Assembly: GCA_964452935.1 (NCBI GenBank)
Contig: CAYVNO010000004.1
Location: 5,519 to 69,518 of the forward strand
Length of the DNA stretch: 64,000 bases
DNA from: an uncultured Methanosarcinales archaeon
Lineage (GTDB): Archaea > Nanobdellota > Nanobdellia > Woesearchaeales > DSVV01
Reading direction: 5' to 3'
In this document: one piece after another, positions 4,235 through 61,233 of the stretch
How the letters are laid out: each line of letters opens with the position of its first letter
How positions within the stretch are numbered: the stretch's first letter is position 1
The notes under the pieces: model-generated
What the model saw: only the letters and a program-made list of their open reading frames with translations
Databases searched by the model: none
Told to the model about the DNA's origin: nothing
Position numbers and translations under genes: made by a program

Positions 4235-6019
4235 TTAAAAATCCCTCGGTTCGTGAAATGTTAAAGGAGATCTGTCATGACCTAACCCTTTTCTATGTTG
4301 TAATTCTTTTATGTGTTTGAATTTTGTTTTTATTAATCTTTGCAAGTTATCTGTAACATCTTCCAGTAATAAGGAAAAGTGTTCTCCCCCAAGGAAGTGT
4401 GGCAGAATAACATAGTCTGCACCTGCGTTGTATAATGTTAGTGCTTCATCTATGTGCATTGCTGTAACAATCACCATTGCGTTTTTGTTTTCTTTTTTTG
4501 TTCTTTTGATTAAGATTAATGAAGTTGTTTCATCAGGGGCTGTTGATATTACCATATTTACTTTTTTTAGATTTATTTCTCGTAGGACATCTGGACTTCC
4601 ACAATCCCCATAGATGCAGGATATCTTTCTTTTGATTAATTCCCTAATTATTTGTGGATTATAATCTATAACTAATATTTCTTTTTTTAGGTGTACTAAT
4701 TTTTTAAGAATACTGTACCCAGTTCTATCATAACCGCAGAGAAGAACATCTATTTCTTCTCTATCTGGCATGTATTCTAAATGGTTTCTTTTTTTAGTCA
4801 TGTTTTCGAATAATGTTAGATCTTTTGAGAATATGGAGAATAACTTTTTCTCGTATTTGATCATATAGCTTGTTGTTGAGATAGATATTACTGCTAATAG
4901 GATTGTTATTGAGAAGATTTCATTACTAATGTGATTTAGAGCTAGACCATGTGCTACAATTATTAATGAAAACTCGCTGATCTGTCCTAACGAGAGTCCT
5001 GTAGGGAATGCTACCTTTTTCTTGTAACCAAATATACTAGTTACAATGAATATAATTAATGGTTTTAGTATTAGGATGAATATTAAAAAGATAAATAAAG
5101 GTAGTAAAAGGTTTTCAAATCCTACAAAGGATAGCTGCATGCCTAGTGAGACAAAGAATAGAATAGCAAAGAAGTCTCTCAATGATTTTACTCTGCCAAT
5201 TATTTCAATACTATAATGTAAGTTACCAAGTATAACTCCTGCAATGAATGCTCCAATTGCGATTGAGAATCCTGTCCACTCGAAGAATAGTGCGAAAAGG
5301 AAACATACTGATAATGCTCCCATAAATAATAGTTCACGAGACTTTGCTGCAAATTTGAATATTTTTGGGAGCAGATATGTACTTATTGCTATTGATAATC
5401 CTATTACAACTGCTCCTTTTATGATTTGTAGGATGAATATTAGGATTGAGAATTTTCCTACAAAAGATAGTGCTAATAGGATGAATATTGCTAATACGTC
5501 TTGCATTAATAATATACCTATGACTATTCTTCCGTGTAGTGTGTCTAGTTCTCGTCTATCTGAGAATACTTTTAATACAACCATTGTGCTACTGAATACA
5601 AGGATTATTCCTAAGTATATAGCATGGATTTTTGAGTACCCTAAAAGAAGAGCTATTAAAAACCCCGCAGGGAATAATAACAACATTTGTATTACACCAC
5701 CCATTGAACTTACAAACTCAACATCTTTCAGTCTTTTGAAATCAATTTCTAATCCTACAATGAATAATAAGAATGCGATACCTATCTCTGATAATGTGAA
5801 GATTAAATCCTTGTTGCTGATTAAAGAAGATACTGCGTGAGTGTTTACTAATCCTTGGAAATTACCTGTTGATAATATATAAGTTAAAACTGGACCTAAA
5901 AGTAGTCCTGCTAAAACATATGCAGGAATCATTGGTTGCCTATATTTTTTTGCAATGAAAGCTATTGCAGTAGCTAAGATCATAATAATTCCAATGTTGA
6001 GGAATATTGTGTTTTGCAT
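4235..6019 (-). CDS. CPA2/Kef-type cation:proton antiporter with C-terminal RCK (TrkA-N) domain
   Basis: About 12 TM helices followed by a Rossmann-like VLLCGYDRTGYSILKKL ... VIDYNP segment. Confidence 0.8.
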   Translation of the reverse strand: MQNTIFLNIGIIMILATAIAFIAKKYRQPMIPAYVLAGLLLGPVLTYILSTGNFQGLVNTHAVSSLISNKDLIFTLSEIGIAFLLFIVGLEIDFKRLKDVEFVSSMGGVIQMLLLFPAGFLIALLLGYSKIHAIYLGIILVFSSTMVVLKVFSDRRELDTLHGRIVIGILLMQDVLAIFILLALSFVGKFSILIFILQIIKGAVVIGLSIAISTYLLPKIFKFAAKSRELLFMGALSVCFLFALFFEWTGFSIAIGAFIAGVILGNLHYSIEIIGRVKSLRDFFAILFFVSLGMQLSFVGFENLLLPLFIFLIFILILKPLIIFIVTSIFGYKKKVAFPTGLSLGQISEFSLIIVAHGLALNHISNEIFSITILLAVISISTTSYMIKYEKKLFSIFSKDLTLFENMTKKRNHLEYMPDREEIDVLLCGYDRTGYSILKKLVHLKKEILVIDYNPQIIRELIKRKISCIYGDCGSPDVLREINLKKVNMVISTAPDETTSLILIKRTKKENKNAMVIVTAMHIDEALTLYNAGADYVILPHFLGGEHFSLLLEDVTDNLQRLIKTKFKHIKELQHRKGLGHDRSPLTFHEPRDF

Positions 6020-7392
6020 TAGCTGTACCTCTTTATTAGTTTAGGAATGTATTTTGTTAAATCTGAAGCTGTAAATGATCTTCCAATATGTTTTTGTGCT
6101 TCTTCTCCTGCTAGACCATTAATGAAAGCTGCAGCACATGCTGAATTGAATAAATCATTACTTTGTGCAATAAAGCCTGCTGTTAAACCTGAGAGTACAT
6201 CTCCAGTACCAGCAATAGTCATTCTTGGTGTTCCAGTTGTATTTAGTTTAGTTTTATTTTTGTTTATAATTCTATCTGTTCTTCCTTTTAAAAGTATTGT
6301 TCCTGCTAGTTTCTTTTTATAACTTGATTTAGTTAATTTGCTGTTTTTTAAGAGTGTGTTGAATTCTTTATTATGTGGGGTGTAGACTGCGTTGGGTTTT
6401 AGAGTAGTTAGTTTAATTGCGTCTGCGTCTACTACTTTGGGTTTGTTTATTTTTAGTATTTGATTTACGAATTTCTTACTTTTTAATCCTAGACCAGGAC
6501 CTATTAATATGCAGTCAAAGTTCTTTGCTAGTTTTAGGATGCTTTTAGTGTGTTTATCTGTGAAATAGTCTCCTTTGTATTTTTTTGTTACAATATTTGG
6601 GTCTATGCAGTTAATTGCCCATGCAACTTTTTCAGGAGCAGCGATTGTTACCCAATCTGTACCTGTTTTGAGTGATGATATAGCTTTTGCAGCTAGTAAA
6701 GGGGCTCCTGTGTAGTCTTTTGATCCTCCGATGATTAGAACTTTTCCGTAATAACCTTTGTGAGCTGACTTCTTTATAGGTTTTAGTACTGCTTTTAGTT
6801 CTCCTGGTCCGACGTGAGTGTAAGCTTTTTTTGGGATTCCTATGTCAATGATTTTGTGTTTTTTTATTAACTCTTTTTTATCTATGAATGTTAGTGTTAT
6901 TTTTGGTTTTATGTAAACTTTGTTTCCTTTTTGTAGTCCTGAAGGGATATCGATGCTTACAATTGGTGTTTTTAGTTTGTTTAGTTTTTTTATTAAGGAG
7001 TTGTATGGTTCTTTTGGTTCCCCTTTTATTCCGTAGCCAAATAATGCGTCAATTATTACGTCATGTTGGTTTATTTTTTTAGTTGTTTTTATTTTTTTGA
7101 AATTTATTTTTGCTTCTGGCTTTAGTTTTGATTTTTTTCCTGCGAAATATACTGGACATTTTAGATATCTTGCTGCAACAAATCCATCCCCGCCGTTATT
7201 TCCGTGTCCTGCGATTACTATTGGATTTTTGTAGTGTTTCTTTATGTAGTTTGCTACAGCTTTGCCTGCATTTTCCATAAGGTTGAGTTTGGAGACTTTA
7301 AAATATTCTGAATTGTCTTCCAAAATTTTTATTTCTTTTATTGATATCATTTGTTTTTCTCGTATCCAATCAATGCTTTGGTATGTTTCCAT
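6019..7392 (-). CDS. nnr: Bifunctional NAD(P)H-hydrate repair enzyme (epimerase + ADP-dependent dehydratase)
   Basis: YjeF-N motif GHGNNGGDGFVAAR and C-terminal carbohydrate-kinase motif GTGDVLSG. Confidence 0.9.
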   Translation of the reverse strand: METYQSIDWIREKQMISIKEIKILEDNSEYFKVSKLNLMENAGKAVANYIKKHYKNPIVIAGHGNNGGDGFVAARYLKCPVYFAGKKSKLKPEAKINFKKIKTTKKINQHDVIIDALFGYGIKGEPKEPYNSLIKKLNKLKTPIVSIDIPSGLQKGNKVYIKPKITLTFIDKKELIKKHKIIDIGIPKKAYTHVGPGELKAVLKPIKKSAHKGYYGKVLIIGGSKDYTGAPLLAAKAISSLKTGTDWVTIAAPEKVAWAINCIDPNIVTKKYKGDYFTDKHTKSILKLAKNFDCILIGPGLGLKSKKFVNQILKINKPKVVDADAIKLTTLKPNAVYTPHNKEFNTLLKNSKLTKSSYKKKLAGTILLKGRTDRIINKNKTKLNTTGTPRMTIAGTGDVLSGLTAGFIAQSNDLFNSACAAAFINGLAGEEAQKHIGRSFTASDLTKYIPKLIKRYS

Positions 7393-7601
7393 ACTGCACT
7401 TTTTGAGTTAATATGGATAAGTATCATGTTCTTGTGTTTACGTTGTTGGATAATATTAAATTTAGTGAATAGTTGAACTGCTGAATGTACTTTTCCAGGA
7501 GAACAATGTAATCTAGCGGCAATATCTCTTATGCAAAGCTCTTCTTTAGAAACTAGTTCGAGGATTTGTATATTCTTTTTTGTGAATATCTCTGACAGCA
7601 T
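7347..7601 (-). CDS. Small winged-helix transcription regulator (ArsR/MarR-like)
   Basis: 84 aa; NIQILELVSKEELCIRDIAARLHCSPGKVHSAVQ is an HTH pattern. Overlaps the nnr start by 46 nt. Confidence 0.55.
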   Translation of the reverse strand: MLSEIFTKKNIQILELVSKEELCIRDIAARLHCSPGKVHSAVQLFTKFNIIQQRKHKNMILIHINSKSAVWKHTKALIGYEKNK

Positions 7602-7811
7602 AGGTTTATTTAATGTTCATTATTTATAAACTTTATGTTTTTTTGAAATGAATGAAATGTTTTTGTATTTTGAATATAGTGTTCAGTTAGAATGAATGAA
7701 TTATATATTGATTTATGTGTTAGTTGTTAATTTGTGAGTACTCTAGAATGGTTTGACTTTATGTATATTTGTTGAATAACTTTTTAAATTGGTGCTCATT
7801 ACCTTGTTTTT

Positions 7812-8591
7812 ATGGTATTAGAGCTAGTTTCGTTAGTGGTGGCGTTGAATGATGTAGCAACCAGAGTAGATGATGCACCTCCAGAGTATGATAATGCTGT
7901 GGTTTGTATGTTTCAAGATCAAGAATGGAGTGTTTATGGAGCTAAATTTGGGACTACAGGGATAAATTCAGATAGACTTTTGTTTGAATATTGGAGAAGA
8001 GACGGGACAGTAGTTAGGGTGTTGAGTACTGATTATGATGGAGATGGTGTTGATTCTGTTAGTGTTTCTATAGATGGGAGAGGTCTTGAGTTTATTGAGT
8101 TTAATAGAGGGACTGATTTTTTGAGTTATCAGTTAGATTTGGATAGAATAAACAGATATAGAGAAGTTAGAGTTCCTGTTGTTGATAATGGAATTGAAGA
8201 TAAGGAAGTGACAGAACATGATGGTTCAGAATTTTATGTTGGATTGTATTCTATGTTAGCAAGACCAGTTCATAGTAACAAGAAAGAGTCTTTATGTCCA
8301 GAAAGAGATTTAGAATTAGGTAGGATGAGAGTGATGATGGATGCTGTTGGAGAGGATGAAGTCTATATTGCAGAAGCTGATCCTTACAGATGTGAGAGAG
8401 TTGGTGGATTATATCCGGGGTACACAGGTAGGTTTGTTCAGGCAGATTATACATCAGCGAGTGCACTTTTTTTAATTCTTGATTCTGTTCATGAATCTGT
8501 TAGAGCAGGAAGAACGCCAGAAGAAGCTTTGGACATATTTAGAGATAGATTAGATGAGACAGTAGGTAGAGTCGTGAATGATTATTTCTGA
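7812..8591 (+). CDS. Lys-poor acidic orphan protein P1 (259 aa) with a DxDxDG-type loop
   Basis: Clean ORF. I count about 4 Lys against more than 20 Arg (AGA/AGG codons). DYDGDGVDS resembles a Ca-binding loop. No family recognised. Confidence 0.6.
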   Translation: MVLELVSLVVALNDVATRVDDAPPEYDNAVVCMFQDQEWSVYGAKFGTTGINSDRLLFEYWRRDGTVVRVLSTDYDGDGVDSVSVSIDGRGLEFIEFNRGTDFLSYQLDLDRINRYREVRVPVVDNGIEDKEVTEHDGSEFYVGLYSMLARPVHSNKKESLCPERDLELGRMRVMMDAVGEDEVYIAEADPYRCERVGGLYPGYTGRFVQADYTSASALFLILDSVHESVRAGRTPEEALDIFRDRLDETVGRVVNDYF

Positions 8592-8618
8592 TTTACTTTG
8601 TATAGTAAGAATAGTGAA

Positions 8619-9713
8619 TTACTCAAACTTAGCTATAAATTCTGGAGAAGGTGCTTGTGATTCTGCGAAAGTAACTTTTCTTAGGTAGCCATTTGAGGGG
8701 TGTTTAACAAAATCTGGTTCAGATTTACATGCGGAGTAGAAATCTTGTCTTTTTACAATGTCTCTAACTACTGCTAGGAATGTTCCTGAGAGATATGATG
8801 TTTGTCTTTTATTAGGCATTGATTCCATTCCAAATCCTGGGTCTCCGTGAAAGTATTTCCAAACTCCTTCTTCAATTAAGTCATATGATCTTCCTTCTGC
8901 TTCTGCTCTCCTTAAATAATTAGAAACCCTATCAGCTAGTTCTTCATCTTGTTCTGTTAGGCTTGAGATTCTTTCTTGTTCTAGTTTATCTCTTTGTCTT
9001 TGTTGATATTCTTCTAGTTTACCAGATAAATGGCTACCCATAGTATTATAACTCCATAATATCCATCCATCAAATTCATTCAAATCTTGACCATCTCCTC
9101 TGCCTTCAATGTTTTCTGTTAGTCCCCTGTAAATTGTTCTTCTTTCATCCTTGTCTAGGTCAGATACAAAATCATTATGAGCAGGCTCATAGAGAATTTT
9201 ACATAGTTTATCTATAAGTTTTAAAGAAGCAGAGAAATTAATAAAGGTTGTTTTTGTATGATGCTCTCCTTCCTCTTCTTCATCTTCTTGTGGGGATATG
9301 TCTAATAAACCCCAATTGTATAATTGGATCATTACTGCGTATTTTTTTGCTGTTTCTGGGTCAACTTCATCTAGTTCTGGAAAATGTTTTGTTAAGAATG
9401 TTTGATCTCCCTCAACAAAGTCTGTTATTTCTTGTTTATCATAAGGATAAGTAGTACGATATGCTAAATCTTCAATTACTGGAGCAAGACCTTCAACACC
9501 TGGTGAGTCTAAGATATCATAAATACCAGGATGTGTTCTTGCTTTTTCTCCCAAAACTGGTTCTCCATCTACGGATTTTGTTTTGCCCATAATTTCACAA
9601 TAGATTTTATCAACTATGTCAAAGTTTTCTAGTAAGAATCCATATATTGTTTCTAAGGTTTCTGTATTTGTCATTGAAGAAGGGAATAGAATATCTTTTT
9701 TAAAGTTTGCCAA
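8619..9713 (-). CDS. Lys-poor acidic orphan protein P2 (about 351-364 aa)
   Basis: Clean ORF with an EDEEEEGEHH acidic run. The start is TTG 9713 (track) or, more likely, ATG 9674, about 45 nt downstream of the TTATAAAT box at 9719-9726. Confidence 0.6.
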   Translation of the reverse strand: MANFKKDILFPSSMTNTETLETIYGFLLENFDIVDKIYCEIMGKTKSVDGEPVLGEKARTHPGIYDILDSPGVEGLAPVIEDLAYRTTYPYDKQEITDFVEGDQTFLTKHFPELDEVDPETAKKYAVMIQLYNWGLLDISPQEDEEEEGEHHTKTTFINFSASLKLIDKLCKILYEPAHNDFVSDLDKDERRTIYRGLTENIEGRGDGQDLNEFDGWILWSYNTMGSHLSGKLEEYQQRQRDKLEQERISSLTEQDEELADRVSNYLRRAEAEGRSYDLIEEGVWKYFHGDPGFGMESMPNKRQTSYLSGTFLAVVRDIVKRQDFYSACKSEPDFVKHPSNGYLRKVTFAESQAPSPEFIAKFE

Positions 9714-9741
9714 ATGAGTTTATAAATGTTGTAACTTACTG

Positions 9742-9858
9742 CAACACTACTGCGCTCCGTGTCTTGGTTAAATACAACATTGTCAGTAACTTTTAGCTTA
9801 AGTTATGGTGTTATAAACGGACTTCGCTTGGCAGTGGCGTTATTGGAGTTGCTCATAA
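9742..9858. ncRNA. Structured repeat element, copy C1 (candidate small RNA or cis-RNA; strand unresolved)
   Basis: Closing helix 9742-9752 / 9830-9840 (11 positions, 1 mismatch, 1 G-U). Conserved blocks are TGCGCTCCGT, CAGTAACTTTTAGC and CGGACTTCGCTTGG, followed by the 21-nt tail GTTATTGGAGTTGCTCATAAC (9838-9858). Confidence 0.55.
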
Positions 9859-9971
9859 CACTGCGACGCTCCGTTCTCGTATATCATTCTTCCTTATCAG
9901 TAATTTTAGCGACGTTTGATGAACATTTAGAAGACTTCGCTGGGTGGCAGTGTTATTGGAGTTGCTCATAA
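9854..9971. ncRNA. Structured repeat element, copy C2 (tandem to C1)
   Basis: Perfect 10-bp closing helix 9854-9863 / 9946-9955. Same blocks (TGCGACGCTCCGT, CAGTAATTTTAGC, GACTTCGCTGGG) and an identical 21-nt tail at 9951-9971. Confidence 0.55.
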
Positions 9972-11333
9972 CTCTTTCAGTTCTTGGACTAATTTCAGAA
10001 CAGCAGTTTTTGCATCTTCGAATAACATAAGTGTGTTATCATAATCAAATAATTCATTCTTTATTCCTGCGAAGCCTGGGCTTAGACTTCGTTTAATCAT
10101 TAAAACTGTTTTTGCTTTATGTGCGTTTAAGATTGGCATTCCGTAGATTGGTGAGGATTCTTCTTTTGTTGCTGCTGGATTTACCACATCGTTTGCTCCG
10201 ATTATTATAACAACATCTGTGTTTTGGAATTCTGAGTTAATGGAATCTAAGTCTTTCAGTTGTTCATAAGGAACATTTGCTTCTGCTAGTAAAACATTCA
10301 TATGACCTGGCATTCTTCCAGCGACTGGGTGAATTGCGTATGAAACTTTTATTTTCTTCTTTTGTAATAAATCTGCTAGATCTCTCACAGCATATTGTGC
10401 TTGTGCAACTGCCATCCCGTAGCCTGGAACAAAGATTACTGATGATGAGTTATCTAGGATTAAAGCTGCTTCATCTGGGGATGTTTCTTTTATATTTGTG
10501 TATTCTGAGTCATCTTTTTTAGTTTCTTTTTGTCCGAATCCACCGAATAAAACATTAACTAAAGATCTGTTCATTGCTTTGCACATTATTCTTGTTAGGA
10601 TAATTCCTGAAGCGCCAACTAATGCTCCGCTTATTATTAGTACTGGGTTTTTCAGTACAAAACCTGCAGCTGCAGCTGCTAATCCTGAATAGGAATTTAA
10701 CAAGGAAATAACAACAGGCATGTCTGCTCCTCCGATTGGAGTTACTAAAAGTATTCCTAGAATTAATGTTACTGCGATTAGTAACCACAATAATAGAATG
10801 TTATTTGTTAAGACTAGGTAAACTGCTAAGGTTATTACTCCAATAAATAAGATTATATTTAGAATATTATTTCCTTTGAATAGGATAGGTCTGCTGTTGA
10901 TTAATCCTTGTAATTTTAAGAAAGCAATTATACTTCCTGTGAATGTAACTGCACCAATGATTACGCTAATAATTGTTGTTGTTAGGTCTCCTGTTGTTAA
11001 AATAGGATTTCTTAAGAAATATGATGATGCAACTAGTACTGATGCTCCCCCACCCATTCCGTTAAAGACAGCAACCATCTGAGGCATAGCTGTCATCTTT
11101 ACTTTTTGAGAGATTATAGCTCCAATTAAACCACCGATAATAAAACCTGCGATTATGTATGGGAATCCTATTGTTTCCATATTAACTATTGTTATAGTTA
11201 CTGCTATTAGCATAGCGATTGCTGATAGAAAGTTTCCTCTTCTTGCTGTTCTTACATGAGTCAGTTGTTTAATTGCAAAGATAAATAGTACTGCTGCAAA
11301 TAAATACACTGAGTTTGTGATTAGTTCATTCAT
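9966..11333 (-). CDS. pntB: NAD(P) transhydrogenase subunit beta
   Basis: Multi-TM N-terminal half and a soluble C-terminal dIII domain (AIHPVAGRMPGHMNVLLAEANVPY, GANDVVNP). Confidence 0.9.
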   Translation of the reverse strand: MNELITNSVYLFAAVLFIFAIKQLTHVRTARRGNFLSAIAMLIAVTITIVNMETIGFPYIIAGFIIGGLIGAIISQKVKMTAMPQMVAVFNGMGGGASVLVASSYFLRNPILTTGDLTTTIISVIIGAVTFTGSIIAFLKLQGLINSRPILFKGNNILNIILFIGVITLAVYLVLTNNILLLWLLIAVTLILGILLVTPIGGADMPVVISLLNSYSGLAAAAAGFVLKNPVLIISGALVGASGIILTRIMCKAMNRSLVNVLFGGFGQKETKKDDSEYTNIKETSPDEAALILDNSSSVIFVPGYGMAVAQAQYAVRDLADLLQKKKIKVSYAIHPVAGRMPGHMNVLLAEANVPYEQLKDLDSINSEFQNTDVVIIIGANDVVNPAATKEESSPIYGMPILNAHKAKTVLMIKRSLSPGFAGIKNELFDYDNTLMLFEDAKTAVLKLVQELKEL

Positions 11334-11611
11334 TTTTTCCTCTTGAACATTTTTAACATTCTATCTGTGACCATGTAACCGCCAGCAACATTAATTGTTG
11401 CCATTATTATTGCAAACATTCCTAGAATATTTGCTAAATTTGGTGATGAATCTGGAATACATAATAAAGCTCCGACAATTATTATGCCTGAGATTGCGTT
11501 TGTACCTGACATAAGTGGTGTGTGTAAAGTAGGAGGTACTTTTGTGATTATTTCAAATCCTACAAAGATTGCTAGTACGAATAATGCGAATAACGCAAAT
11601 AATGAAATCAT
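11330..11611 (-). CDS. pntA: NAD(P) transhydrogenase alpha subunit, membrane part (split PntA2)
   Basis: 93 aa with 3 TM helices. Sits between the alpha-1 and beta genes with 4-nt overlaps on both sides. Confidence 0.85.
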   Translation of the reverse strand: MISLFALFALFVLAIFVGFEIITKVPPTLHTPLMSGTNAISGIIIVGALLCIPDSSPNLANILGMFAIIMATINVAGGYMVTDRMLKMFKRKK

Positions 11612-12675
11612 TCTTTAACCTCTGATTTTGTTATAACTTCATCATCTTTGTTATTGATAAATTCTGTTAAGAAGTTAAGAATATTTTTAGAGTACATCTC
11701 TGTTGAGTGAATTGCTACAGTAGCAGGAATATTTGCTTCTCCGATTATTGTTACTCCGTGTTTTGTTATTGTTTTGTTTAATTTGCTAACTGCACAGTTT
11801 CCTCCTGCTTCTACTGCCATATCTACAATAACAGAACCATTCTTCATAGTCATAACCATATCTTCTGTTATTAAGACAGGAGCTCTTCTTCCGGGGATTA
11901 ATGCAGTAGTTATTACAACATCTGCTTGTTTAATTCTTTTTTTAACTTCTTCTGCTTGTTTTCTTAAAAATTCTTTTGAAGGACCTTTTGCGTAGCCGTT
12001 TTTGTCTTCTGTGTTGTCTTCAAATTCTACTTCTATAAACTTAGCACCTAGACTTTCTACCTGTTCTTTAACTGCTGGCCTTATATCTGATGCTTCAACT
12101 TGTGCACCTAATCTTCTTGCTGTTGCGATTGCTTGTAAACCTGCAACACCTGCTCCGAGAATAACGACTTTTGCTGGATGTATTGTTCCAGCAGCAGTCA
12201 TTAATAATGGAAATAGTTTTGGTAAAGCGTTAGCAGCCATGATTACTGCTTTGTATCCTGCAATATTACTTTGAGAGGTTAATGAATCCATTTTTTGTGC
12301 TCTTGATATTCTTGGGATTAAATTCATTGAGTAAAGTTTGATTTTATTTTTTGATGCTAGTTTTATTATATCTGATTCTGTTTGCGGAATTAAAGATGAT
12401 ATGAATGTTGCACCTTTTTTTGCTGAGTTTAGCTCTCGTTTAGTTGGCGGATTTACTTTTACAATAATATCTGCCCTTGAGAAGACTGTCTTTAAATTTT
12501 TAGAAACTTTTGCACCTGCTAGTTGGTATTCTTGGTTAGAATGTTGTGAGAGCTCTCCGGCCCCATCTTCAATGAACACCTTTAGTTTGAGCTCTGTTAT
12601 TTTCTTAACAGTTTCAGGTGTAGCAGCCACCCTTGTTTCATTCTTCTTTGTTTCTTTTGGGATTAGGATGTTCAC
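11608..12675 (-). CDS. pntA: NAD(P) transhydrogenase alpha subunit, soluble dI part (alanine-dehydrogenase-like)
   Basis: Rossmann motif VVILGAGVAGLQAIATARRLGA and operon context with the other pnt genes. Confidence 0.9.
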   Translation of the reverse strand: MNILIPKETKKNETRVAATPETVKKITELKLKVFIEDGAGELSQHSNQEYQLAGAKVSKNLKTVFSRADIIVKVNPPTKRELNSAKKGATFISSLIPQTESDIIKLASKNKIKLYSMNLIPRISRAQKMDSLTSQSNIAGYKAVIMAANALPKLFPLLMTAAGTIHPAKVVILGAGVAGLQAIATARRLGAQVEASDIRPAVKEQVESLGAKFIEVEFEDNTEDKNGYAKGPSKEFLRKQAEEVKKRIKQADVVITTALIPGRRAPVLITEDMVMTMKNGSVIVDMAVEAGGNCAVSKLNKTITKHGVTIIGEANIPATVAIHSTEMYSKNILNFLTEFINNKDDEVITKSEVKE

Positions 12676-15781: not shown

Positions 15782-15840
15782 TTAAATATTTCGCTTATTT
15801 TGTCATATTCCAAATATTTAAAAAGAATTAGTGTAAAGTA

Positions 15841-32464: not shown

Positions 32465-33421
32465 ATGTATCTTGAAAAAAGAGAATTAAATGGAAAAATC
32501 AAGTATTTTCTGTCTCATTCATATAGGGAGGGCAAGCAAGTTCACAAATTTAGGAAATATCTTGGTCAAGATCTGAAACAAGGTAAGTTAAAGGAACGAA
32601 TGAAAATTGCTGAAAAGCTTATTCTTGAAGAGATCCACAAATATACCATAATAAATGATCCATTGAATATTAAGCTTTCGAAAGAAGATATAGAATCAAT
32701 AAAGAAGATTGAAGCAGAAATACCTTTGAAGATAAGCCATCTTTCTGAAAAAGACTGGACAGCATTCTCAGAGATATTTACTTATAACACCAATGCAATA
32801 GAAGGAAGTAAGCTCAACAAAAAAGAGGTTATAGATTTACTTGAAAAAGATAAATGGCCAAATAAATCAAAAGAAGATATTGCAGAAGCTTTTGGTGTTG
32901 ATGAAGCTATAAGGTTCATTAGGAAGACAAAAGAGCATATTTCTATTGATTTAATTAAAAAAATTCATAAGATTGTTTTTAAGAATTCTAAATCTTTTGC
33001 AGGAAAATTGAGAAAGAAAGGAGAAGAAGTAGTTGTTATGGGTGCTGGAGGGAAAGTAGTTCATGAGGGTGCTCCACAAACCAGAGTAAATCACCTACTT
33101 AGAGAATTAGTTAAATGGTATGAAAAAAATAAGAATGAATATCCTGGATTAATACTTGGAGGAGTTGTTCATAATCAATTTGAGAATATACATCCGTTTG
33201 CAGATGGAAATGGTCGTGTAGGTAGAATATTGTTGAATAATATTTTGATAAAACATAAGCTGCCTCCGATAAATATTAATTTTAAAAACCGAGTAGAATA
33301 TTATAAGACTTTACAGGAATATGAGAATAATCAGAATATTAAGCCAACTATTGACTTATTCTTGAAAGAGTATAAATCACTGAAAAAACAGCTAGGTGTC
33401 TACAGAAATAAGAAAAAGTAG
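32465..33421 (+). CDS. Fic-domain protein (AMPylase family) with N-terminal inhibitory-helix motif
   Basis: Complete HPFADGNGRVGR motif (HxFx[DE]GNGRxxR) and TNAIEG matching [ST]xxxE[GN]. Lys-rich, host-like composition. Confidence 0.9.
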   Translation: MYLEKRELNGKIKYFLSHSYREGKQVHKFRKYLGQDLKQGKLKERMKIAEKLILEEIHKYTIINDPLNIKLSKEDIESIKKIEAEIPLKISHLSEKDWTAFSEIFTYNTNAIEGSKLNKKEVIDLLEKDKWPNKSKEDIAEAFGVDEAIRFIRKTKEHISIDLIKKIHKIVFKNSKSFAGKLRKKGEEVVVMGAGGKVVHEGAPQTRVNHLLRELVKWYEKNKNEYPGLILGGVVHNQFENIHPFADGNGRVGRILLNNILIKHKLPPININFKNRVEYYKTLQEYENNQNIKPTIDLFLKEYKSLKKQLGVYRNKKK

Positions 33422-36445: not shown

Positions 36446-36852
36446 ACGACATCTCCTCCTTCCATTACCTCAAATTTAAAGAATTTTGTGCCTTTATTGA
36501 AATCTTCTTCTGTAAATGTTGCGTTTAGAGCAACTTCTGAATAAAATAATAGGTCACTCATTCCCCCCTTTCCTTCGATTTGAAAGATGATATAATTGTT
36601 ATTTTCAATATATGTGTTATTAATACTTGGGGGGAAATCAAATTTTGCAACTATTCTTGCTCCTTCTCCGTATGGATATATTGATTGTGCGTTTTCTATC
36701 ATTGCATTCCCTATTGAGTCTACTCTTGAATTTACAACTTCAAATGTCGACTCTTGTATAAAATTTGTAAACAAGACTAATGCAGGGAATAGTAGTAACA
36801 TTGAGATGGCAATAATTGCTAAGACTTCTGTTGAGGATTGTGATTTTCTCAT
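36427..36852 (-). CDS. Archaeal pilin-like protein (class III signal peptide)
   Basis: MRKSQSSTEVLAIIAISMLLLFPALVLF N-terminus; 4-nt overlap with the adhesin gene. Confidence 0.65.
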   Translation of the reverse strand: MRKSQSSTEVLAIIAISMLLLFPALVLFTNFIQESTFEVVNSRVDSIGNAMIENAQSIYPYGEGARIVAKFDFPPSINNTYIENNNYIIFQIEGKGGMSDLLFYSEVALNATFTEEDFNKGTKFFKFEVMEGGDVVLIEKQ

Positions 36853-39059
36853 TTTAGGTATTCATCTAGTACATCTTCTAGCCATCCTGCTTTTAGTAGT
36901 TTTTGTTTTATTTTTTCACTATCTAATCCTTTGGTTTTATTTTGTTTGATATAGTCCTCAAGTTCTTTGTGATCATAGCTAGGTTTTGGAACTGTTAAGA
37001 ATAGTCGTGTTTTTTCCTTTTCTTCTTCTACCTCTCCTTTGAGTTCCCGTATACTTTTTTCAATGTTTTTCTTTTTTCTTAATTTTTTTGTTATGTTTAT
37101 ACCTACTACCACTATTATTAGTAAGACTACTGCAAGCCCTATCAATGTTAGTATTTTCTTTTTCTTTGTATCTGTTTCTGTTGTTATTTTTACAACTTCT
37201 TCTGGCTCTTCTTCTGGTTCTACTTCTACTGGAGCTTCATAGCTAACATTTGTTTCTACTACTACACTTTCTTCTGTATATTCTACAGGAGCTTCTGTTT
37301 CAATTACTTCTACTGTTTCTGGAGCATCTACTGCTAACTCTTTTTCTATTGAATAAGTATATTCTTCTGCATTTGATAAATAATATAGTTGCATGTCAAA
37401 TGAACTTTCACCTTCTTGAACAAAGACAGAGTCAACTGTGAAATTAAAATATATAGAAGATGTATTTATTAGTTGGTCTAGCTCTCTTTGCGTAACATAC
37501 CATGCGTAGGTAAATCCTGTATCTGTAGAGAAGACAACACTTACGTCTGAAATGTCAGTCTGGTTTGTTAAAGACATTGTTGCTTTCATAAGGGCACTAT
37601 CCTCAATTGTGTCTATCTGTTCAAGATCTATTGATACATATTGATAGACTAAGTTTGCTGCAATTGATATTGTTTCTGTTATTCCGAAAGTTAGTGCTTC
37701 ACCGTATTCTGTTTCATATTCTGCTGTGAAGTTAACTAGGTAAGATTGTGTTGTGTCTGAGTAAGGGGCTGTGAGTTCTACTGTTTTTATTAATGCATTT
37801 ATTCCTTTTCCTATGAATGTTCTGTATTGTAAATCTTCAAATAGTTCGGATTTCATATCCATTTGAACGTCTGAGTAATCCATTGTACCGTCTGGGTTAT
37901 TAACATGGAATGAGATGCTAAATTCTTCTCCTCCCTCTATACTTTCTTTGTTCACAACTATGGTTGGTTCAAGTTCACTCATTTCTATTGAAATTGATTC
38001 TGTCTCTTCTTTTGTGTAATCGTTGCCTTCGTATGTATATGTTATGTAAACTTTCAGTTCGTTTGTTCCAGAGCTAAAAAGATTAGTTTTAAGGGTGTAT
38101 GTTTCTGTTTCTGAAGGAGCGTATTCTCCGGACCATGTGTAGATACCACTTTCTTCTGTAAATCCTGATGGCCCACGAGTAACTTCAGAACCTGTTGGAG
38201 GAGTTACTTCAACATTGAATGATATTTCTTCTGTTTCCATTGTGTTATTTAGGGTGAATGTGAAAGTAACTTCATCCTCTATTTCTGCTTCCTCGACATC
38301 TGCAGAGATTTTAAGGACAATTGGCTCTACTAGTTCTAAGTCTATCTCATCTACAGTAATGTTATAATCTTCACCTTCAAATGTGTATATAACTTCTGCT
38401 TCTGTTAGGTTGAATGTTGAAGGAGGGTATGATTCTAATATTAAGGTATATGTTAGTGTTGCTGATTCTGTAGGATAGATGCTTCCTTTCCAGTGTGCAG
38501 TTGTAGAGTCATCAATTGGATCTGTCCATTGTTGTGTAGATGTTCCTTCTGTTACTCTTAAGTATCCATCTTTTACTAAGTAATATGGGAGTGGGTCAGT
38601 ATATTCAGCAACAACATTATCATCCCCTGTATTTTCTATATCTACTGTTACAACAATTTCTTGCCCTAATGCAACTTCTTCTTCGCTTACAGACCTATCA
38701 ATGTCAACATCAGGTTCTCTTTTGTCTACCTCAATCCTGAACTGATATTCTTCTTCTTTTCCACTTACTACCTGATCTGTGTCGTTAAGATTATCATCAT
38801 CTCCAAATCTTTTTTCTTCATATCTAAATGTGTATAATCCATTTATAGTAGAATCTCCCAAATTAATTGTAACTGTGCCATACTCGTTTGATTTCATTAA
38901 AACTGTGTTTAAAATATCTCCCACACCAAAAGCAGTATATTCTGTTCCATCTATTGTTACTGTTTCTCCGTAAGATATCCAGTCATCGAATATTTCGGTA
39001 TCTGCATATACAAATGGAAGGAATAGAAGGATGGGTATTATTAAACATAATTTTTTCAT
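36849..39059 (-). CDS. Large acidic secreted surface protein (Ig/CARDB-like repeats), C-terminal TM anchor and short cytoplasmic domain
   Basis: N-terminal signal peptide MKKLCLIIPILLFLPFVYA, about 600 aa of Thr/Glu/Asp/Val-rich beta-type sequence, the TM helix ILTLIGLAVVLLIIVVVGI, and a tail ending GLDSEKIKQKLLKAGWLEDVLDEYLK. Confidence 0.7.
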   Translation of the reverse strand: MKKLCLIIPILLFLPFVYADTEIFDDWISYGETVTIDGTEYTAFGVGDILNTVLMKSNEYGTVTINLGDSTINGLYTFRYEEKRFGDDDNLNDTDQVVSGKEEEYQFRIEVDKREPDVDIDRSVSEEEVALGQEIVVTVDIENTGDDNVVAEYTDPLPYYLVKDGYLRVTEGTSTQQWTDPIDDSTTAHWKGSIYPTESATLTYTLILESYPPSTFNLTEAEVIYTFEGEDYNITVDEIDLELVEPIVLKISADVEEAEIEDEVTFTFTLNNTMETEEISFNVEVTPPTGSEVTRGPSGFTEESGIYTWSGEYAPSETETYTLKTNLFSSGTNELKVYITYTYEGNDYTKEETESISIEMSELEPTIVVNKESIEGGEEFSISFHVNNPDGTMDYSDVQMDMKSELFEDLQYRTFIGKGINALIKTVELTAPYSDTTQSYLVNFTAEYETEYGEALTFGITETISIAANLVYQYVSIDLEQIDTIEDSALMKATMSLTNQTDISDVSVVFSTDTGFTYAWYVTQRELDQLINTSSIYFNFTVDSVFVQEGESSFDMQLYYLSNAEEYTYSIEKELAVDAPETVEVIETEAPVEYTEESVVVETNVSYEAPVEVEPEEEPEEVVKITTETDTKKKKILTLIGLAVVLLIIVVVGINITKKLRKKKNIEKSIRELKGEVEEEKEKTRLFLTVPKPSYDHKELEDYIKQNKTKGLDSEKIKQKLLKAGWLEDVLDEYLK

Positions 39060-39132
39060 TAATGCACCTCTTTTTAGATGAATGGGGAAGAACTCTATAT
39101 ATAATTTATGGTTTTTAATGAGGCAAACTGTA

Positions 39133-39250
39133 TGACAATATTGCGCTCCGTTCTAGTGTGTAATATGCCTTATTAGTAACTTTTAGCTTATTTTATATAA
39201 AAATTACTGACTACGCTTGGCAATATTGTCAATAAAGTTGATAATACTTG
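39133..39250. ncRNA. Structured repeat element, copy C3
   Basis: Perfect 12-bp closing helix TGACAATATTGC (39133-39144) / GCAATATTGTCA (39220-39231). Blocks are TGCGCTCCGT, TTAGTAACTTTTAGC and GACTACGCTTGG, with tail AATAAAGTTGATAATAC followed by TTTTT (39251-39255). Confidence 0.55.
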
Positions 39251-39294
39251 TTTTTATGGAAAACATTATATATTAAATACTGTTAGAAAGAGAC

Positions 39295-40980
39295 ATGGAT
39301 GATTTAAAGCCGTTAATACGTAAGTATGCTCTTAAGAATGCTATTAATTTCAATGGGAAAGCGGTAGCAGGGAATATCTTGGGTAAGGTGCTTAGTGAGA
39401 ATACGGAGTTAAAGTCAGATATTAATAATGTTAGGAAGATTGTTATTGAAATAGTTGAAGATGTTAATTCTATGGGTGTGGAGAAACAGAAAAGTGAGTT
39501 AGAAAGATGTGCTCCAGAATTATTGGAAAAGAAAAAAGGGGAAAAGAGAGAGGGTTTGAAAGAGTTGCAAGGGGTTAGTGGTAAAGTAGTTATGAGAATG
39601 GCCCCTTCTCCATCAGGACCTTTACATATAGGACACTCTTATGTTACCTCGTTGAATTATGAATATGTAAAAAAATATGGGGGAACATTTATTTTAAGAA
39701 TAGAGGATACAAATCCTTCAAATATTTATCCAGCGGCGTATGATTTAATTCCGGATAATGCAAAATGGTTGACAGGCGATGGTGTTGATTTAGTTGTTAT
39801 ACAATCAGATAGAATGAATATTTATTATGATTATGCTTTGAGGTTGATAGAAGAAGGGTTTGCTTATGTTTGTAAATGCTCTCAGGATGATTTTAAATCG
39901 TGTTCTGGTGAGAAGGTTAATTGTCCTTGTAGGAATCTTGATAATCATGCAAACAGATGGCATAAGATGTTTACAGAGTATAGTGAGGGAGAGGCTGTTG
40001 TTCGGTTTAAAACTGATATGCAACACAAGAATCCTGCGATGAGGGATTTTCCTTTATTTAGGATTAATGACGACGAGCATCCTAGAGTTGGGAAAAAATA
40101 TAGAGTATGGCCGTTAATGAATATGTCTGTTGCAATTGATGATTTAGATTTAGGAGTTACACATACATTAAGAGGGAAGGATCATGCTGATAATGCAAAA
40201 AGGCAGGAGTTTATTCATAATGCGTTAGGTCATAAGACACCTGTACCTATATCTGTTGGCCGTATTAACTTTACTGGTGGATTGAAAGTTTCATGTTCAA
40301 AAATAAAGCCGTTGATTGATTCTGGTTTTTATACTGGATGGGACGATATAAGATTGCCATTCTTAGTTGCGTTAAGAAGGAGAGGTTATCAGCCAGGGGC
40401 TTTTCGGAAGTATGCTGTCTCTGTTGGTGTTACTAAAAATGATAAAACTGTTACAATGGATGATTTTTTTAAGACAATAAATGCTTTTAATAAAGAGATT
40501 ATAGATGCAAAGGCTTCGAGGTTTTTCTTTGTAGAAGATCCTGTTGAGGTTGTTATTGATGGTGCTCCTGAAAAACATATTGAGTTAGATTTGCATCCTG
40601 AGAAGAAAAATGGAGGAAGGATGTTTACTACAAATGATAAGTTTTATTTGTGTAGTAAAGATGTTGAATTAATTGAAGAAGGTGGAGTTTATAGATTAAT
40701 GGATTGTTTGAATTTTATTAAGAGAGGGGGAACTTATGTTTATAATAAAGCAGGATATGAGTTATATAAGAAAGAAGGGAAAGGGATATTCCATTGGTTG
40801 TCAGGAGGTAAGGTTGATGTTGAGGTCTTAATGCCTGATAACACTGTTAGAAAAGGGTATGGAGAGGAAACAATGGATTTATTAGAAGTCGGAGATGTTG
40901 TTCAGTTAGAACGGTTTGGTTTCTGTAGATTAGATAGAAAAGATGGAAAAAAATTATATTTTTGGTTTGCGCATACTTAA
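39295..40980 (+). CDS. gltX: Glutamyl-tRNA synthetase, archaeal/eukaryal GlxRS type
   Basis: PSGPLHIGHS (HIGH) motif, RIEDTNP and a KMSKS-like VSCSKIK; 561 aa. Confidence 0.9.
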   Translation: MDDLKPLIRKYALKNAINFNGKAVAGNILGKVLSENTELKSDINNVRKIVIEIVEDVNSMGVEKQKSELERCAPELLEKKKGEKREGLKELQGVSGKVVMRMAPSPSGPLHIGHSYVTSLNYEYVKKYGGTFILRIEDTNPSNIYPAAYDLIPDNAKWLTGDGVDLVVIQSDRMNIYYDYALRLIEEGFAYVCKCSQDDFKSCSGEKVNCPCRNLDNHANRWHKMFTEYSEGEAVVRFKTDMQHKNPAMRDFPLFRINDDEHPRVGKKYRVWPLMNMSVAIDDLDLGVTHTLRGKDHADNAKRQEFIHNALGHKTPVPISVGRINFTGGLKVSCSKIKPLIDSGFYTGWDDIRLPFLVALRRRGYQPGAFRKYAVSVGVTKNDKTVTMDDFFKTINAFNKEIIDAKASRFFFVEDPVEVVIDGAPEKHIELDLHPEKKNGGRMFTTNDKFYLCSKDVELIEEGGVYRLMDCLNFIKRGGTYVYNKAGYELYKKEGKGIFHWLSGGKVDVEVLMPDNTVRKGYGEETMDLLEVGDVVQLERFGFCRLDRKDGKKLYFWFAHT

Positions 40981-53523: not shown

Positions 53524-54588
53524 TCATTTTGAAGGTGATGGTGGAGCATCCATTTCCTTTTTCTCTTCTTTTTGTTTAGGGAGAGTATCTATTTTCTTTT
53601 CTTCTTTTGGTTTTTTCTTTAGAAAACCGAAGAATCCTTTTTTCTTTGGAGCATCTTCTGCTTTTTTAGGAGGAGCGTCTATTTTTGGAGCTTCCCCTGG
53701 TTTTGGAGGAGAATCTATTTTTGGAGCTTCCCCTGGTTTTGGAGGAGAATCTATTTTTGGAGCTTCTTTTGGAGGGGCATCTATTTTTGGAGCTTCTTCC
53801 TTTTTAGGAGGAGTGTCTATCTTTGCTGGTTCACCTGGAGCAGTAGGTTTTTGTATGTTAATTTCTCCTGCAGCTCCTTCAACACCCATATCTATTAATT
53901 TATGTAATCTTAGAATTTTCTTGTAAAGAATTGATTTCTCGTATAGAAAACCGTCAGGGAGTTCGTTGTATAATCTGTTGATTTCATAGAACTCTTTTTT
54001 TGCAAGATCCATTTTTCTATCTTTTATGTATCCTAATGAGTTATCAATATGATCATGGATTTCTTCTGTTTTCTTAGTCAGGACATCGAATGATTTCTTA
54101 TTGAATGCGTTTACAAGTGTGCTGTAAAAAGCTAGAATTTCATTTTCCATCTCCATCTTTCTTTCAGCAAACGCGTCTGGAAGTTCTTTGAATACACCTC
54201 TTACTTCGAGATATAGTTGATTAGCTTTTTTTACTTCTCCGGTTTTTAAGCCTTCTCTTGCTTTTGCTAAGAGTCCTTTGATTATCTCTGTCTTTTTATC
54301 CATTTCTAGTTTTAAACTATTTAGACTTTCAAGAAGTTCTATATTTATTTCATTTATTTCTCGATGTAATTTTCTTTTTTCTTCTTCTTGTTTCTTTGCT
54401 AGATTTGCAAAGTTATCTTTAACAGCAAAGTATACTTTTTCTGCTTCTTTGAAATCTTTTTTTCTTATTAATTCTTTTACTTTGATTATTTGATCCTCTA
54501 TTGTTTTATCAGTAAAGTATTCAGCGCCTTTTGACACAAGATCCTTGTGTTTTTCAGCTTCCGTGTTTAAAAATTCATCAATGTCCAT
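53524..54588 (-). CDS. Coiled-coil protein with C-terminal Pro/Lys-rich tandem repeats
   Basis: About 240 aa helical, then (E)APKID(A/S/T)PPK(P/K) repeats. Confidence 0.55.
   Translation of the reverse strand: MDIDEFLNTEAEKHKDLVSKGAEYFTDKTIEDQIIKVKELIRKKDFKEAEKVYFAVKDNFANLAKKQEEEKRKLHREINEINIELLESLNSLKLEMDKKTEIIKGLLAKAREGLKTGEVKKANQLYLEVRGVFKELPDAFAERKMEMENEILAFYSTLVNAFNKKSFDVLTKKTEEIHDHIDNSLGYIKDRKMDLAKKEFYEINRLYNELPDGFLYEKSILYKKILRLHKLIDMGVEGAAGEINIQKPTAPGEPAKIDTPPKKEEAPKIDAPPKEAPKIDSPPKPGEAPKIDSPPKPGEAPKIDAPPKKAEDAPKKKGFFGFLKKKPKEEKKIDTLPKQKEEKKEMDAPPSPSK
53648..53824. repeat. In-frame tandem DNA repeat, 30-39 nt units, two perfect 36-nt copies
   Basis: GGAGCTTCCCCTGGTTTTGGAGGAGAATCTATTTTT occurs at 53687-53722 and 53723-53758, with degenerate copies on both sides. 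Confidence 0.85.
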
Positions 54589-60784: not shown

Positions 60785-60991
60785 ATGGCAAAGTTTAATA
60801 TTATTATTGAGAAGGATGAAGAAGGATGGCTTGTTTCTGAGGTAGTTGAACTCCCAGGATGTCATACACAAGCAAAGACGATGGATGAGCTTGTTGAGAG
60901 AACAAAAGAAGCTATTCAAGCGTATTTGGAAACTGAAAAGAAACCAAAAATTCTTGATAGGTTTGTGGGAGTGAAACAGATAGAGGTGTAA
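60785..60991 (+). CDS. hicB: HicB-family antitoxin
   Basis: MAKFNIIIEKDEEGWLVSEVVELPGCHTQAKTMDEL. Confidence 0.8.
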   Translation: MAKFNIIIEKDEEGWLVSEVVELPGCHTQAKTMDELVERTKEAIQAYLETEKKPKILDRFVGVKQIEV

Positions 60992-60993
60992 TT

Positions 60994-61233
60994 TTGCCAA
61001 AATTGCCTAGGTTGACTGGAAAAGAGGTAGCTAAAGTAGTAGAAAAATTTGGTTTTGTTTATAGTCATACAACTGGTAGTCATATGATCTACAAACATTC
61101 TGATGGAAGAAGAACAACCATCCCACATCATGCTGGAGAAGAGATTGGACCTGGTTTATTGAATAAGATAATAAAAAAAGATTTAGGAATTTCTAGAGAT
61201 GAATTTTTGAAGAGAATTTTAAAGAAAAAATAA
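60994..61233 (+). CDS. hicA: HicA-family mRNA interferase toxin
   Basis: LTGKEVAKVVEKFGFVYSHTTGSHMIYKH; TTG start 5 nt after GAGGTG. Confidence 0.8.
   Translation: MPKLPRLTGKEVAKVVEKFGFVYSHTTGSHMIYKHSDGRRTTIPHHAGEEIGPGLLNKIIKKDLGISRDEFLKRILKKK

Follow-up and report, generated by a model that had tools for sequence, protein, structure and literature searches.

A dispersed intergenic repeat with a covarying closing stem, possibly a new REPIN/MITE-like type, in a woesearchaeal genome

Among the small repeats described in bacteria, REPINs appear to follow the logic closest to that of the element analysed here. They are extragenic, occur as single copies and in ordered tandem clusters, and have inverted ends ~71 bp apart that form a hairpin in single-stranded DNA (ssDNA) or mRNA, with compensatory changes being common (PMC3116915). 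The element in question was found in a 64,000-nucleotide stretch of an archaeal genome of the Woesearchaeales (positions 5,519 to 69,518 of contig CAYVNO010000004.1, assembly GCA_964452935.1), which we refer to throughout as the window. Its copy C3 (39133-39231) is a perfect 12-bp inverted repeat enclosing ~75 nt, and its pattern of conservation is the inverse of that of a REPIN. At somewhat less than even confidence, we tentatively favour the reading that C3 is a member of a lineage-specific, non-coding and non-autonomous family of hairpin-forming dispersed repeats of a new type, which resembles both REPINs and MITEs (miniature transposable elements with inverted repeats).

A preliminary description of this DNA had placed C3 at 39133-39250, with a perfect 12-bp closing helix and with the same three blocks, in the same order and spacing, as in two other copies (C1 and C2). 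Both the location and the helix are borne out by the sequence, as are the blocks by their pattern matches and gaps, while the end coordinate 39250 takes in an 18-nt tail that lies beyond the helix. The parts of C3 are as follows.

39117 to 39132, plus strand: leader, AATGAGGCAAACTGTA, the first stretch with no counterpart, or none that aligns, at the element-free orthologous site of a relative (L065); it thus marks the left boundary of the inserted DNA
39133 to 39144, plus strand: 5' arm of the closing stem, TGACAATATTGC
39145 to 39151, plus strand: block A, GCTCCGT
39173 to 39187, plus strand: block B, the central conserved block, TTAGTAACTTTTAGC, with its core AGTAACTTTTAGC at 39175-39187
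39209 to 39219, plus strand: block C, GACTACGCTTG (consensus ACTNCGCTKG), which abuts the 3' arm on its 5' side
39220 to 39231, plus strand: 3' arm, GCAATATTGTCA, perfectly complementary to 39133-39144
39232 to 39249, plus strand: tail, ATAAAGTTGATAATACTT, with an AGTTG-like pentamer 4 nt past the arm; TTTTT follows at 39251-39255

The three-block signature reads GCTCCGT / AGTAACTTTTAGC / GACTNCGCTTG, and block C, when written as GACTACGCTTGG, spans 39209-39220 in C3. Block A is invariant as GCTCCGT in the five copies of this genome and reads GCTTCGT in the copy of a relative (L008c), while the tail pentamer, as read from the sequences, is AGTTG, AGATG or AGTAG in every copy, 4-6 nt past the arm. 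The block-to-block gaps in C1, C2 and C3 are 24, 24 and 23 nt for the first and 26, 25 and 25 nt for the second. Zero-mismatch matches to the blocks in the window fall only in copies of the element (block B as written misses C2, which has one base fewer), and block A with at most one mismatch was observed there 3 times as against 0.53 expected. In its anatomy, the element thus consists of a 12-bp stem of free sequence, with invariant sequence at the inner end on both sides (GCUCC... / ...UNCGCUUG), a central conserved U-rich block, and two variable spacers of fixed length. The core measures ~100 bp per copy, or 115-135 bp including the leader and tail.

By using contigs that encode window proteins, the analysis was extended beyond the window, such that ~86 kb of this genome were readable altogether. 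The other copies are given below, with the locus named for those that lie outside the window.

C1, 9742 to 9860, plus strand: arms CAACACTACTGC (9742-9753) and GCAGTGGCGTTA (9831-9842); tail ATTGGAGTTGCTCATAAC
C2, 9856 to 9973, plus strand: in tandem with C1; arms TAACACTGCGAC (9856-9867) and GTGGCAGTGTTA (9944-9955)
C4, L052:17708-17807, on the minus strand there, which is the orientation of C1-C3: ~3.8 kb left of the window; arms AGACAATAGTGC / GCACTATTGTCT, a perfect 12 bp
C5, L056:15785-15885: ~5.5 kb right of the window; arms TGCTATTACTGC / GCAGTAATGGCA, 12 bp with one G.U pair
L008c, L008:1842-1939, minus strand: in the nearest sequenced relative; GCTTCGT ... ACTCCGCTTG; arms ATAGTGC / GCACTAT plus two G.U pairs

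The cores of C1 (9742-9842) and C2 (9856-9955) are separated by 13 nt, and the two whole copies share ~70% identity on average, with most of the divergence falling between the blocks. When a covariance model was scored at every position of the 64 kb, exactly C1, C2 and C3 were returned. With this first model we also found L008c, a diverged copy at a non-orthologous site in a Nanoarchaeia metagenome-assembled genome (MAG) whose glutamyl-tRNA synthetase (GluRS) is 58% identical. Copies number ~5 in roughly 86 kb of this genome and 1 in 30 kb of the relative. All of them are intergenic, and the five in this genome share one orientation (chance ~1 in 8 for four independent loci). A second covariance model, based on all six copies, gave nothing further in 643 kb that included 29 other Woesearchaeota-type loci, nor any new copy in 9.6 kb more of this genome and 55 kb of a co-occurring relative. 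Moreover, the strict three-block pattern had 0 matches in 185,579 species genomes and one unrelated, GC-rich chance match in a metagenome collection, and the relaxed two-block pattern had one chance match, on a GC-rich contig, in a viral collection. Weak covariance-model matches in four other loci (L031, L011, L034 and L046) were dismissed on inspection as coding sequence or noise. Because extra copies are absent from these wider searches of genome, metagenome and viral collections, the family is, as judged from the sequences covered, narrow and lineage-specific. In C5, the 5' arm region TCTTTGTGCTATTACT (L056:15779-15794) recurs at 88% identity in the first spacer as TCTTTGTGCTAATTCT (15805-15820), which may mean that the region was duplicated internally or that the 3' arm has a second possible pairing partner; weaker arm-like stretches were noticed by eye in spacer 1 of C1 and C3.

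The evidence that the ends are held together by pairing comes from an alignment of the six copies (C1, C2, C3, C4, C5 and L008c) anchored on the invariant blocks. Here, standard pairs occupy 93.1% of the 72 stem cells, even as the arms vary at 11 of 12 positions and 9 of the 12 pairs show, in one copy or more, a change on each side. For covariation the score is 0.683, whereas shuffled partners give 0.256 ± 0.059 and 0 of 500 shuffles attain it. When the partner strand is slid by 1-3 columns, pairing falls to 24-62% of the cells. RNAalifold on the three window copies likewise gave the 12-bp closing helix, with 5 doubly changed pairs. The compensatory changes reported for this helix in the preliminary description are real, on three copies as well as on six, and its central observation, that the arms are kept complementary through changes of sequence while the loop blocks stay fixed, finds support in the six-copy covariation. 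Its numbering of the pairs for C2 is in a register offset by 3 nt from the block-anchored one, and double changes are seen in both registers. Among the additional copies, the arms of C4 and C5 pair over the whole 12 bp and those of L008c only in part, with 7 Watson-Crick pairs, 2 G.U pairs and unpaired outer positions. Since the arm sequence is free and only its complementarity is kept, the constraint, on the strength of this alignment, has to bear on one folded strand, of RNA or of ssDNA, and a sequence-specific recognition of duplex DNA cannot explain the covarying arms.

Within the stem, RNAalifold on six copies showed, besides the closing stem and two invariant pairs, no other conserved helix, and no conserved pairing partner was found for block B when the six-copy alignment was folded. 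On neither strand are the folded interiors (74-77 nt) more stable than dinucleotide shuffles (z -1.8 to +1.6), and the predicted folds differ among the copies. A second helix beside the stem (columns 18-23 with 77-82) was considered and is unsupported, with 99 of 500 shuffles being as good. The coding of a small peptide was also rejected, given that no frame stays open, or is conserved, throughout the copies and that the block spacing varies by 1 nt.

Comparison with relatives revealed sites at which the element is lacking. C3 lies between the divergent genes for a DUF11-domain protein (36849-39059, minus strand) and GluRS (gltX; 39295-40980, plus strand). In the co-occurring relative L065, whose GluRS is 64% identical, the same divergent gene pair is separated by a 76-nt spacer, as against 235 nt here. 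The DUF11-side half of the L065 spacer, which includes a TATA box and ATTTATGGTTTTT, aligns with the window up to 39116 (local score 36; 0 of 1000 shuffles), and L065 has no counterpart to 39117-~39250, being without about 135-160 nt that include C3. An origin of the C3 tail from the ancestral GluRS upstream region was considered and set aside, as the 11/13 match to L065 is not significant (348 of 1000 shuffles). The C1/C2 pair is flanked on one side by the 3' end of pntB and on the other by the promoter of a hypothetical gene, both genes being on the minus strand, whereas the pntB of the closest relatives (75% and 68% identical) has 66 nt or 1 nt behind it and no element. In fact, the C2 tail overlaps the native pntB stop (TCA at 9966-9968 on the plus strand), and because the C-terminus ...ELKEL* is conserved, TCATAAC in this tail is native gene sequence. 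A 21-mer that includes the stop codon, GTTATTGGAGTTGCTCATAAC, is identical on both sides of C2, although C1 and C2 are so divergent from each other (only ~70% identical). Two copies of AAAAGTAGAA (10 bp) flank L008c, the left one holding the native TAG of the upstream gene. Homologues of the 463-aa gene beside L008c (P0002 loci) lie in another context with no element, and so give no empty site for this copy. Within-copy similarity between leader and tail exceeds the between-copy value only for C2 and L008c. C5, for its part, is found at the right edge of a block of three genes (esterase, BNR-repeat and 399-aa hypothetical) inserted in the order between cmk and an FKBP-type isomerase gene (L056:11725-15984), while in L065 (9899-10000) the cmk and FKBP genes are adjacent, 102 nt apart, with no three-gene block. 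Lastly, the C1/C2 junction is where contig L053 breaks off, and repeats are a frequent cause of such breaks in assemblies. Taking together the empty orthologous sites, the flanking gene-end duplications, the tandem pair and this contig end, the element looks, from sequence comparison, to be an inserted and multi-copy one. For these same reasons, the earlier argument that the helix does not reflect transposon terminal repeats holds only in part: the arms are not classical transposase-recognised repeats, though the contrast drawn with a transposon was too strong.

According to the reading that we favour, the element spreads, or once spread, via a single-stranded intermediate, for which ssDNA would be most likely and RNA less so. 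In this intermediate, the 12-nt ends would pair and thereby unite blocks A and C, both invariant, at the foot of the stem, and it would be the junction of stem and loop, rather than the arm sequence, that is read by a putative mobilising or binding protein. Any arm sequence could then be tolerated provided that the pairing is kept, which would give rise to the covariation. Secondarily, the stem may act within neighbouring mRNAs. What stands behind this reading are the at least six copies, the strong covariation of the stem, the fixed order and spacing of the blocks, the lack of other conserved structure, and the emptiness of the orthologous sites.

Several observations weigh against it. At only 2 of 5 loci are the flanking direct repeats clear, and their lengths are unequal (21 bp at C2 and 10 bp at L008c); C5 has a 9-mer at asymmetric distances from its arms (p about 0.02-0.03), and at C3, C4 and the C1-C2 pair as a whole the flanking repeats are at background level. 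The contigs of the same species show no presence/absence polymorphism, all being identical at C1, C2 and C3, the only copies compared, so that no recent movement is seen. Moreover, genes for a transposase, HUH/Y1 enzyme, integrase, recombinase or reverse transcriptase are absent from the ~86 kb readable. A 12-bp stem that closes a 75-nt loop is also an unusual substrate for the known hairpin-reading transposases, and blocks A and C, kept as they are over a deep divergence (58% GluRS identity), would be compatible with a host function too. A uniform target duplication ~20 nt outside the arms (TTTATGG/GTTTTTA at C3, CCCAAAATG at C5 and TGTTTT... at C4) was looked for and is unsupported.

The main rival to this reading, with which mobility could coexist, is that the copies are independently transcribed structured small RNAs of ~100-115 nt from the plus strand, in which the stem joins and protects the ends and the blocks bind a protein or targets, the genes having multiplied and moved. 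We consider it unlikely on balance, even if a fair number of features accord with it. Covariation needs pairing within one strand, the fixed order and spacing of the blocks amid variable spacers resembles that of protein-bound guide-type RNAs, blocks A and C are kept in a relative at only 58% GluRS identity, and the five copies of this genome all have the same orientation. The G.U pairs, by hand count on the six-copy alignment, number 4 on the plus strand versus 2 on the minus strand, although these are too few to assign the strand. Here, the preliminary description had drawn attention to a TATA-like sequence ~30 nt upstream of C3 and a TTTTT after the tail, and both were located where it had put them. 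The promoter elements around C3 are the following.

39096 to 39106, strand not assigned: TATA-like box, CTATATATAAT, 27 nt before the C3 5' arm, with its centre 29-33 nt before the arm
39265 to 39276, plus strand: TATA box of gltX itself, centred ~24 nt before the ATG at 39295; a leaderless-type promoter

A plus-strand start ~6 nt before the C3 arm would also fit the upstream box, and at C4 the TATA centre is 28.5 nt before the arm, such that the distance is 28-33 nt in these two copies. They are also the only ones with a T-run past the tail (T5 at C3 and T4 at C4). However, both boxes are already accounted for by divergent genes with Shine-Dalgarno-like motifs. At C3, 42 nt separate the box from the start codon of the DUF11 gene (ATG, reverse complement, 39057-39059), a GAGGTG Shine-Dalgarno-like motif precedes this ATG by 5-10 nt, and the box is conserved in the element-free L065 spacer; for these reasons it needs no second explanation and would most simply serve the divergent DUF11-domain gene. 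Together with the gltX box, this shows C3 to lie between two predicted divergent promoters. The C4 box serves a divergent AlaX-like gene with a GGTGAT motif. At C1, a box (TTTATAAA, 9719-9726) is only 15 to about 20 nt from the arm, and a second one at 9695-9705 fits a leaderless start of the divergent gene. C2, C5 and L008c have no TATA upstream, and C5 and L008c follow behind a same-strand gene. Relative to co-directional neighbours, two loci are antisense (C1/C2 and C4) and two are sense (C5 and L008c). T4-T5 runs are found inside the element as well, on the plus strand in block B (T5 in C4 and L008c), and these would tend to halt the archaeal RNA polymerase. Given the missing TATA boxes, the internal T-runs and the mixed orientation to neighbours, an independent plus-strand transcript seems possible at some copies, though not consistently across copies. 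As the intergenic regions are tiny, every copy is instead probably transcribed passively on one strand or the other, in or next to a neighbouring mRNA. It further counts against small RNA genes that the stem is the sole conserved structure and the interior no more stable than shuffles, that Rfam has no match, that the orthologous sites are empty, and that a density of ~5 copies in 86 kb is high for RNA genes.

More far-reaching, and in our estimation doubtful, is the proposal of an archaeal small RNA class that would be both new and mobile in its own right, or else of a new structure-guided mobile element of the DPANN archaea, with the copies arising via RNA or ssDNA. Just as doubtful is the molecular picture that goes with it, in which the stem of free sequence would present an asymmetric loop (GCUCC / UNCGCUUG) and the U-rich block to a dedicated protein. 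If true, the archaea would have here their counterpart to the REPIN/RAYT-type or retro-mobile elements, with the logic of conservation inverted, the core being conserved and the ends free.

Alternatively, the stem could function in cis within the untranslated region of read-through mRNAs as a 3'-end stabiliser, a processing site or an insulator between packed genes, as has been proposed for the bacterial REP, ERIC and Correia elements. The mRNAs concerned would be those of pntB and a DUF58 gene (minus strand) and of the 399-aa and 463-aa genes (plus strand). In line with this, at 4 of 5 loci the stop codon of a gene transcribing into the element is 2-63 nt away from it, a perfect inverted repeat gives the same stem in either orientation, and at C1/C2 there is no terminator-like T-run on the reading strand between the stop codons and the element. 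Yet the copies occur in both orientations to the upstream gene while the blocks are asymmetric and conserved on one strand only, for which a simple stabilising hairpin has no need. C3, moreover, is located between divergent promoters and downstream of no gene, and relatives are without the element at the same sites. All told, we find a role of this kind improbable.

Still less credence, amounting to a very small chance, can be given to a structure-specific recombination site, whether attC-like or the target of another recombinase, that marks the junctions of inserted gene blocks. While attC sites do keep their structure as their sequence varies, the C1/C2 arms begin with AAC and end with GTT, copies are seen at synteny breakpoints (the edge of the block at C5, and at pntB, whose neighbours differ in every relative), and direct repeats flank some copies, the AAC/GTT ends are missing in C3, C4, C5 and L008c, and the interior is not palindromic, unlike that of attC. 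The 13 nt between C1 and C2 hold no cassette, C3 splits two ancestrally adjacent genes with no gene added, and no integron integrase is encoded in the ~86 kb. An array of duplex-DNA binding sites for a regulator or chromatin protein near promoters is the least believable of all, for although each copy is 15-35 bp from the TATA box of a neighbouring gene and blocks A and C share a CGCT core ~70-72 bp apart, near seven helical turns, duplex recognition does not explain covarying arms of unconserved sequence, the neighbours are functionally unrelated (hypothetical, DUF11, GluRS, AlaX-like, FKBP and histone genes), and proximity to TATA boxes is expected of any intergenic insertion in so compact a genome.

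As for its setting, the window has a G+C content of 31-35% and encodes ordinary chromosomal functions, among them pntAB, purine and riboflavin synthesis, transketolase, an archaeal-type GluRS, aIF5A, a thermosome subunit and a Cdc6-like protein. The closest GluRS sequences among the 185,579 species genomes belong to Woesearchaeota/Nanoarchaeia MAGs and reach at most 58% identity, there being no close genome in that set. Next to C1/C2, a complete pntAA-pntAB-pntB operon for a proton-translocating transhydrogenase occupies 9966-12675, with its best homologues in other Woesearchaeota and then in diverse bacteria (58-61%). On the other side of C1/C2, at ~7300-8700, the gene calls of L053 and L052, which represent the same species in different samples, differ near a small HVO_A0114-like helix-turn-helix gene and the hypothetical gene. 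The latter has 290 aa versus 259 aa between the strains, an 84-aa gene is uncalled in L053, and the locus and window coordinates shift by 20 nt between a 519-aa gene and the C1/C2 locus.

Some 1.9-2.1 kb right of the window, where the three-gene block bounded on its right by C5 has its left edge, we noticed a tRNA-like sequence, GCCAGAGTAGCCAAGCTGGGTCAAGGCGCCTAGTTGATGGCTGGG...GCGGGTTCAAAT...CCCGCCTCTGGCG, with extra insertions (L056:11870-12085). It was missed by ARAGORN and Rfam, and may be a tRNA-Ile(GAU) that carries non-canonical introns. A ~55-nt stretch lying about 40 nt further upstream contains a partial duplicate, GGCCAAGGCACTTAGTTGAAAACTAAGTTAACACCTCGCA. In the window (1-64000), ARAGORN gave no tRNA and Rfam no RNA family, and the ~22 kb of flanking DNA contained no tRNA by ARAGORN and no rRNA among the called genes. 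If intron-containing tRNAs are typical here, standard tools may under-call tRNAs. Elsewhere in the window, tandem repeats with a 36/66-nt periodicity (GGAGCTTCCCCTGGTTTTGGAGGAG...) at 53660-53874 lie within a 354-aa minus-strand open reading frame (ORF; 53524-54588), which implies a low-complexity repeat protein and possibly a surface protein. A HicB-like antitoxin/HicA toxin pair (60785-61233) adjoins a response-regulator receiver gene. At or just past the left window edge (L052:13499-14968) there is a ribbon-helix-helix/PIN pair with a Fic gene, and a second Fic-domain gene is found at 32465-33421. A short, 278-aa Cdc6/Orc1-like ORF at 48572-49408 matches Pfam by its lid domain only, and the cumulative GC skew flattens at ~44-56 kb.

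With regard to its significance, the genomes of DPANN archaea are very small and densely packed, and yet this one retains a non-coding element of 100-135 bp at ~5 copies per 86 kb. If this density held genome-wide, and with a genome of ~1 Mb assumed, several tens of copies would be expected. Ends that are constrained only to pair, along with interior blocks that survive a deep split, point to the recognition of a folded single strand. To our knowledge, structure-reading transposition (REP/RAYT, IS200/IS605 and attC/IntI) is well documented in bacteria and hardly so for such small archaeal repeats. Should the element prove to be an RNA, it would constitute an unrecorded RNA family of an uncultivated phylum. 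In more practical terms, the repeat breaks assemblies (as in L053) and marks synteny breakpoints, and would therefore be useful in the curation of MAGs of this group.

The element matches no described family, and is set apart from the named ones by the features tested. Rfam 15 run over the window gave 0 matches at the gathering thresholds, and at E-values up to 10 over the copies, the best were unrelated snoRNA models with 12-20 bits, as against thresholds of 39-172 bits. ARAGORN and Rfam detected no tRNA or tRNA-like cloverleaf in the element, and, as regards retrons, no reverse transcriptase domain is present in the neighbouring genes of the six copies. A literature search on repeats and MITEs in DPANN archaea and Woesearchaeota turned up nothing specific and, as far as such searches show, a small hairpin-forming intergenic repeat is undescribed in this phylum.

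Among the RNA classes, the C/D and H/ACA guide RNAs are similar in being multi-copy, with boxes in fixed order and spacing, variable stretches and a covarying terminal stem. Genes for these guide RNAs frequently adjoin the end of a neighbouring ORF, or overlap it, and have no promoter of their own. Yet the element is about twice the length of a C/D RNA, with neither RUGAUGA/CUGA beside the stem nor the GA pairs of a k-turn; its stem-adjacent sequences, GCTCCGT (GCTTCGT in L008c) and CGCTTG, are not box C/D. In contrast to H/ACA RNAs, there is no conserved upper stem and no ANA box (the nucleotides directly past the stem are ATT, ATA, TTT, CTT or TCT), and the sequences equivalent to the pocket are invariant instead of target-specific. 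The attC sites are of a similar size range (57-141 bp) and are alike in that their structure is kept while their sequence varies and in being read as a folded single strand, though their RYYYAAC/GTTRRRY core sites, full-length pairing with extrahelical bases and cassette ORFs do not apply to most copies. Here, the arm ends are AAC...GTT only in C1 and C2, GAC...GTC in C3 and C4, TGC...GCA in C5, and neither of the first two in L008c.

Among mobile elements, the IS200/IS605-derived elements (PATEs) and other HUH substrates share with the element a structure that is read in ssDNA and a strand bias of insertion comparable to the one orientation seen here; the AGTTG-like motif 4-6 nt from the foot of the stem also resembles a cleavage-site tetra- or pentanucleotide. 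They differ in having two small subterminal hairpins and no target duplication, whereas one long-range stem closes the element here, its left-flank motif is not at a fixed distance, and no TnpA/TnpB was found nearby. The likeness to MITEs, those of archaea included, lies in the small size, AT-richness, lack of an ORF, intergenic and multi-copy occurrence, inverted-repeat boundaries, empty orthologous sites and, for some copies, flanking direct repeats. However, the terminal repeats of MITEs are conserved in sequence, being read by the transposase, and their target duplication is of fixed length, neither of which holds here. With REPINs, which RAYT transposases mobilise in bacteria, the element has in common non-coding extragenic units of ~100 nt, inverted ends ~70 bp apart, compensatory changes, tandem as well as single copies, and multiple copies per genome. 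It differs from them by its DPANN host, by an interior that does not extend the hairpin, and by the lack of a RAYT/Y1 gene in the ~86 kb available. More conspicuously, while the ends of REPINs (the REP 16-mers) are their most conserved part and the spacer is free, it is the arms that are least conserved in this element and the interior blocks that are conserved.

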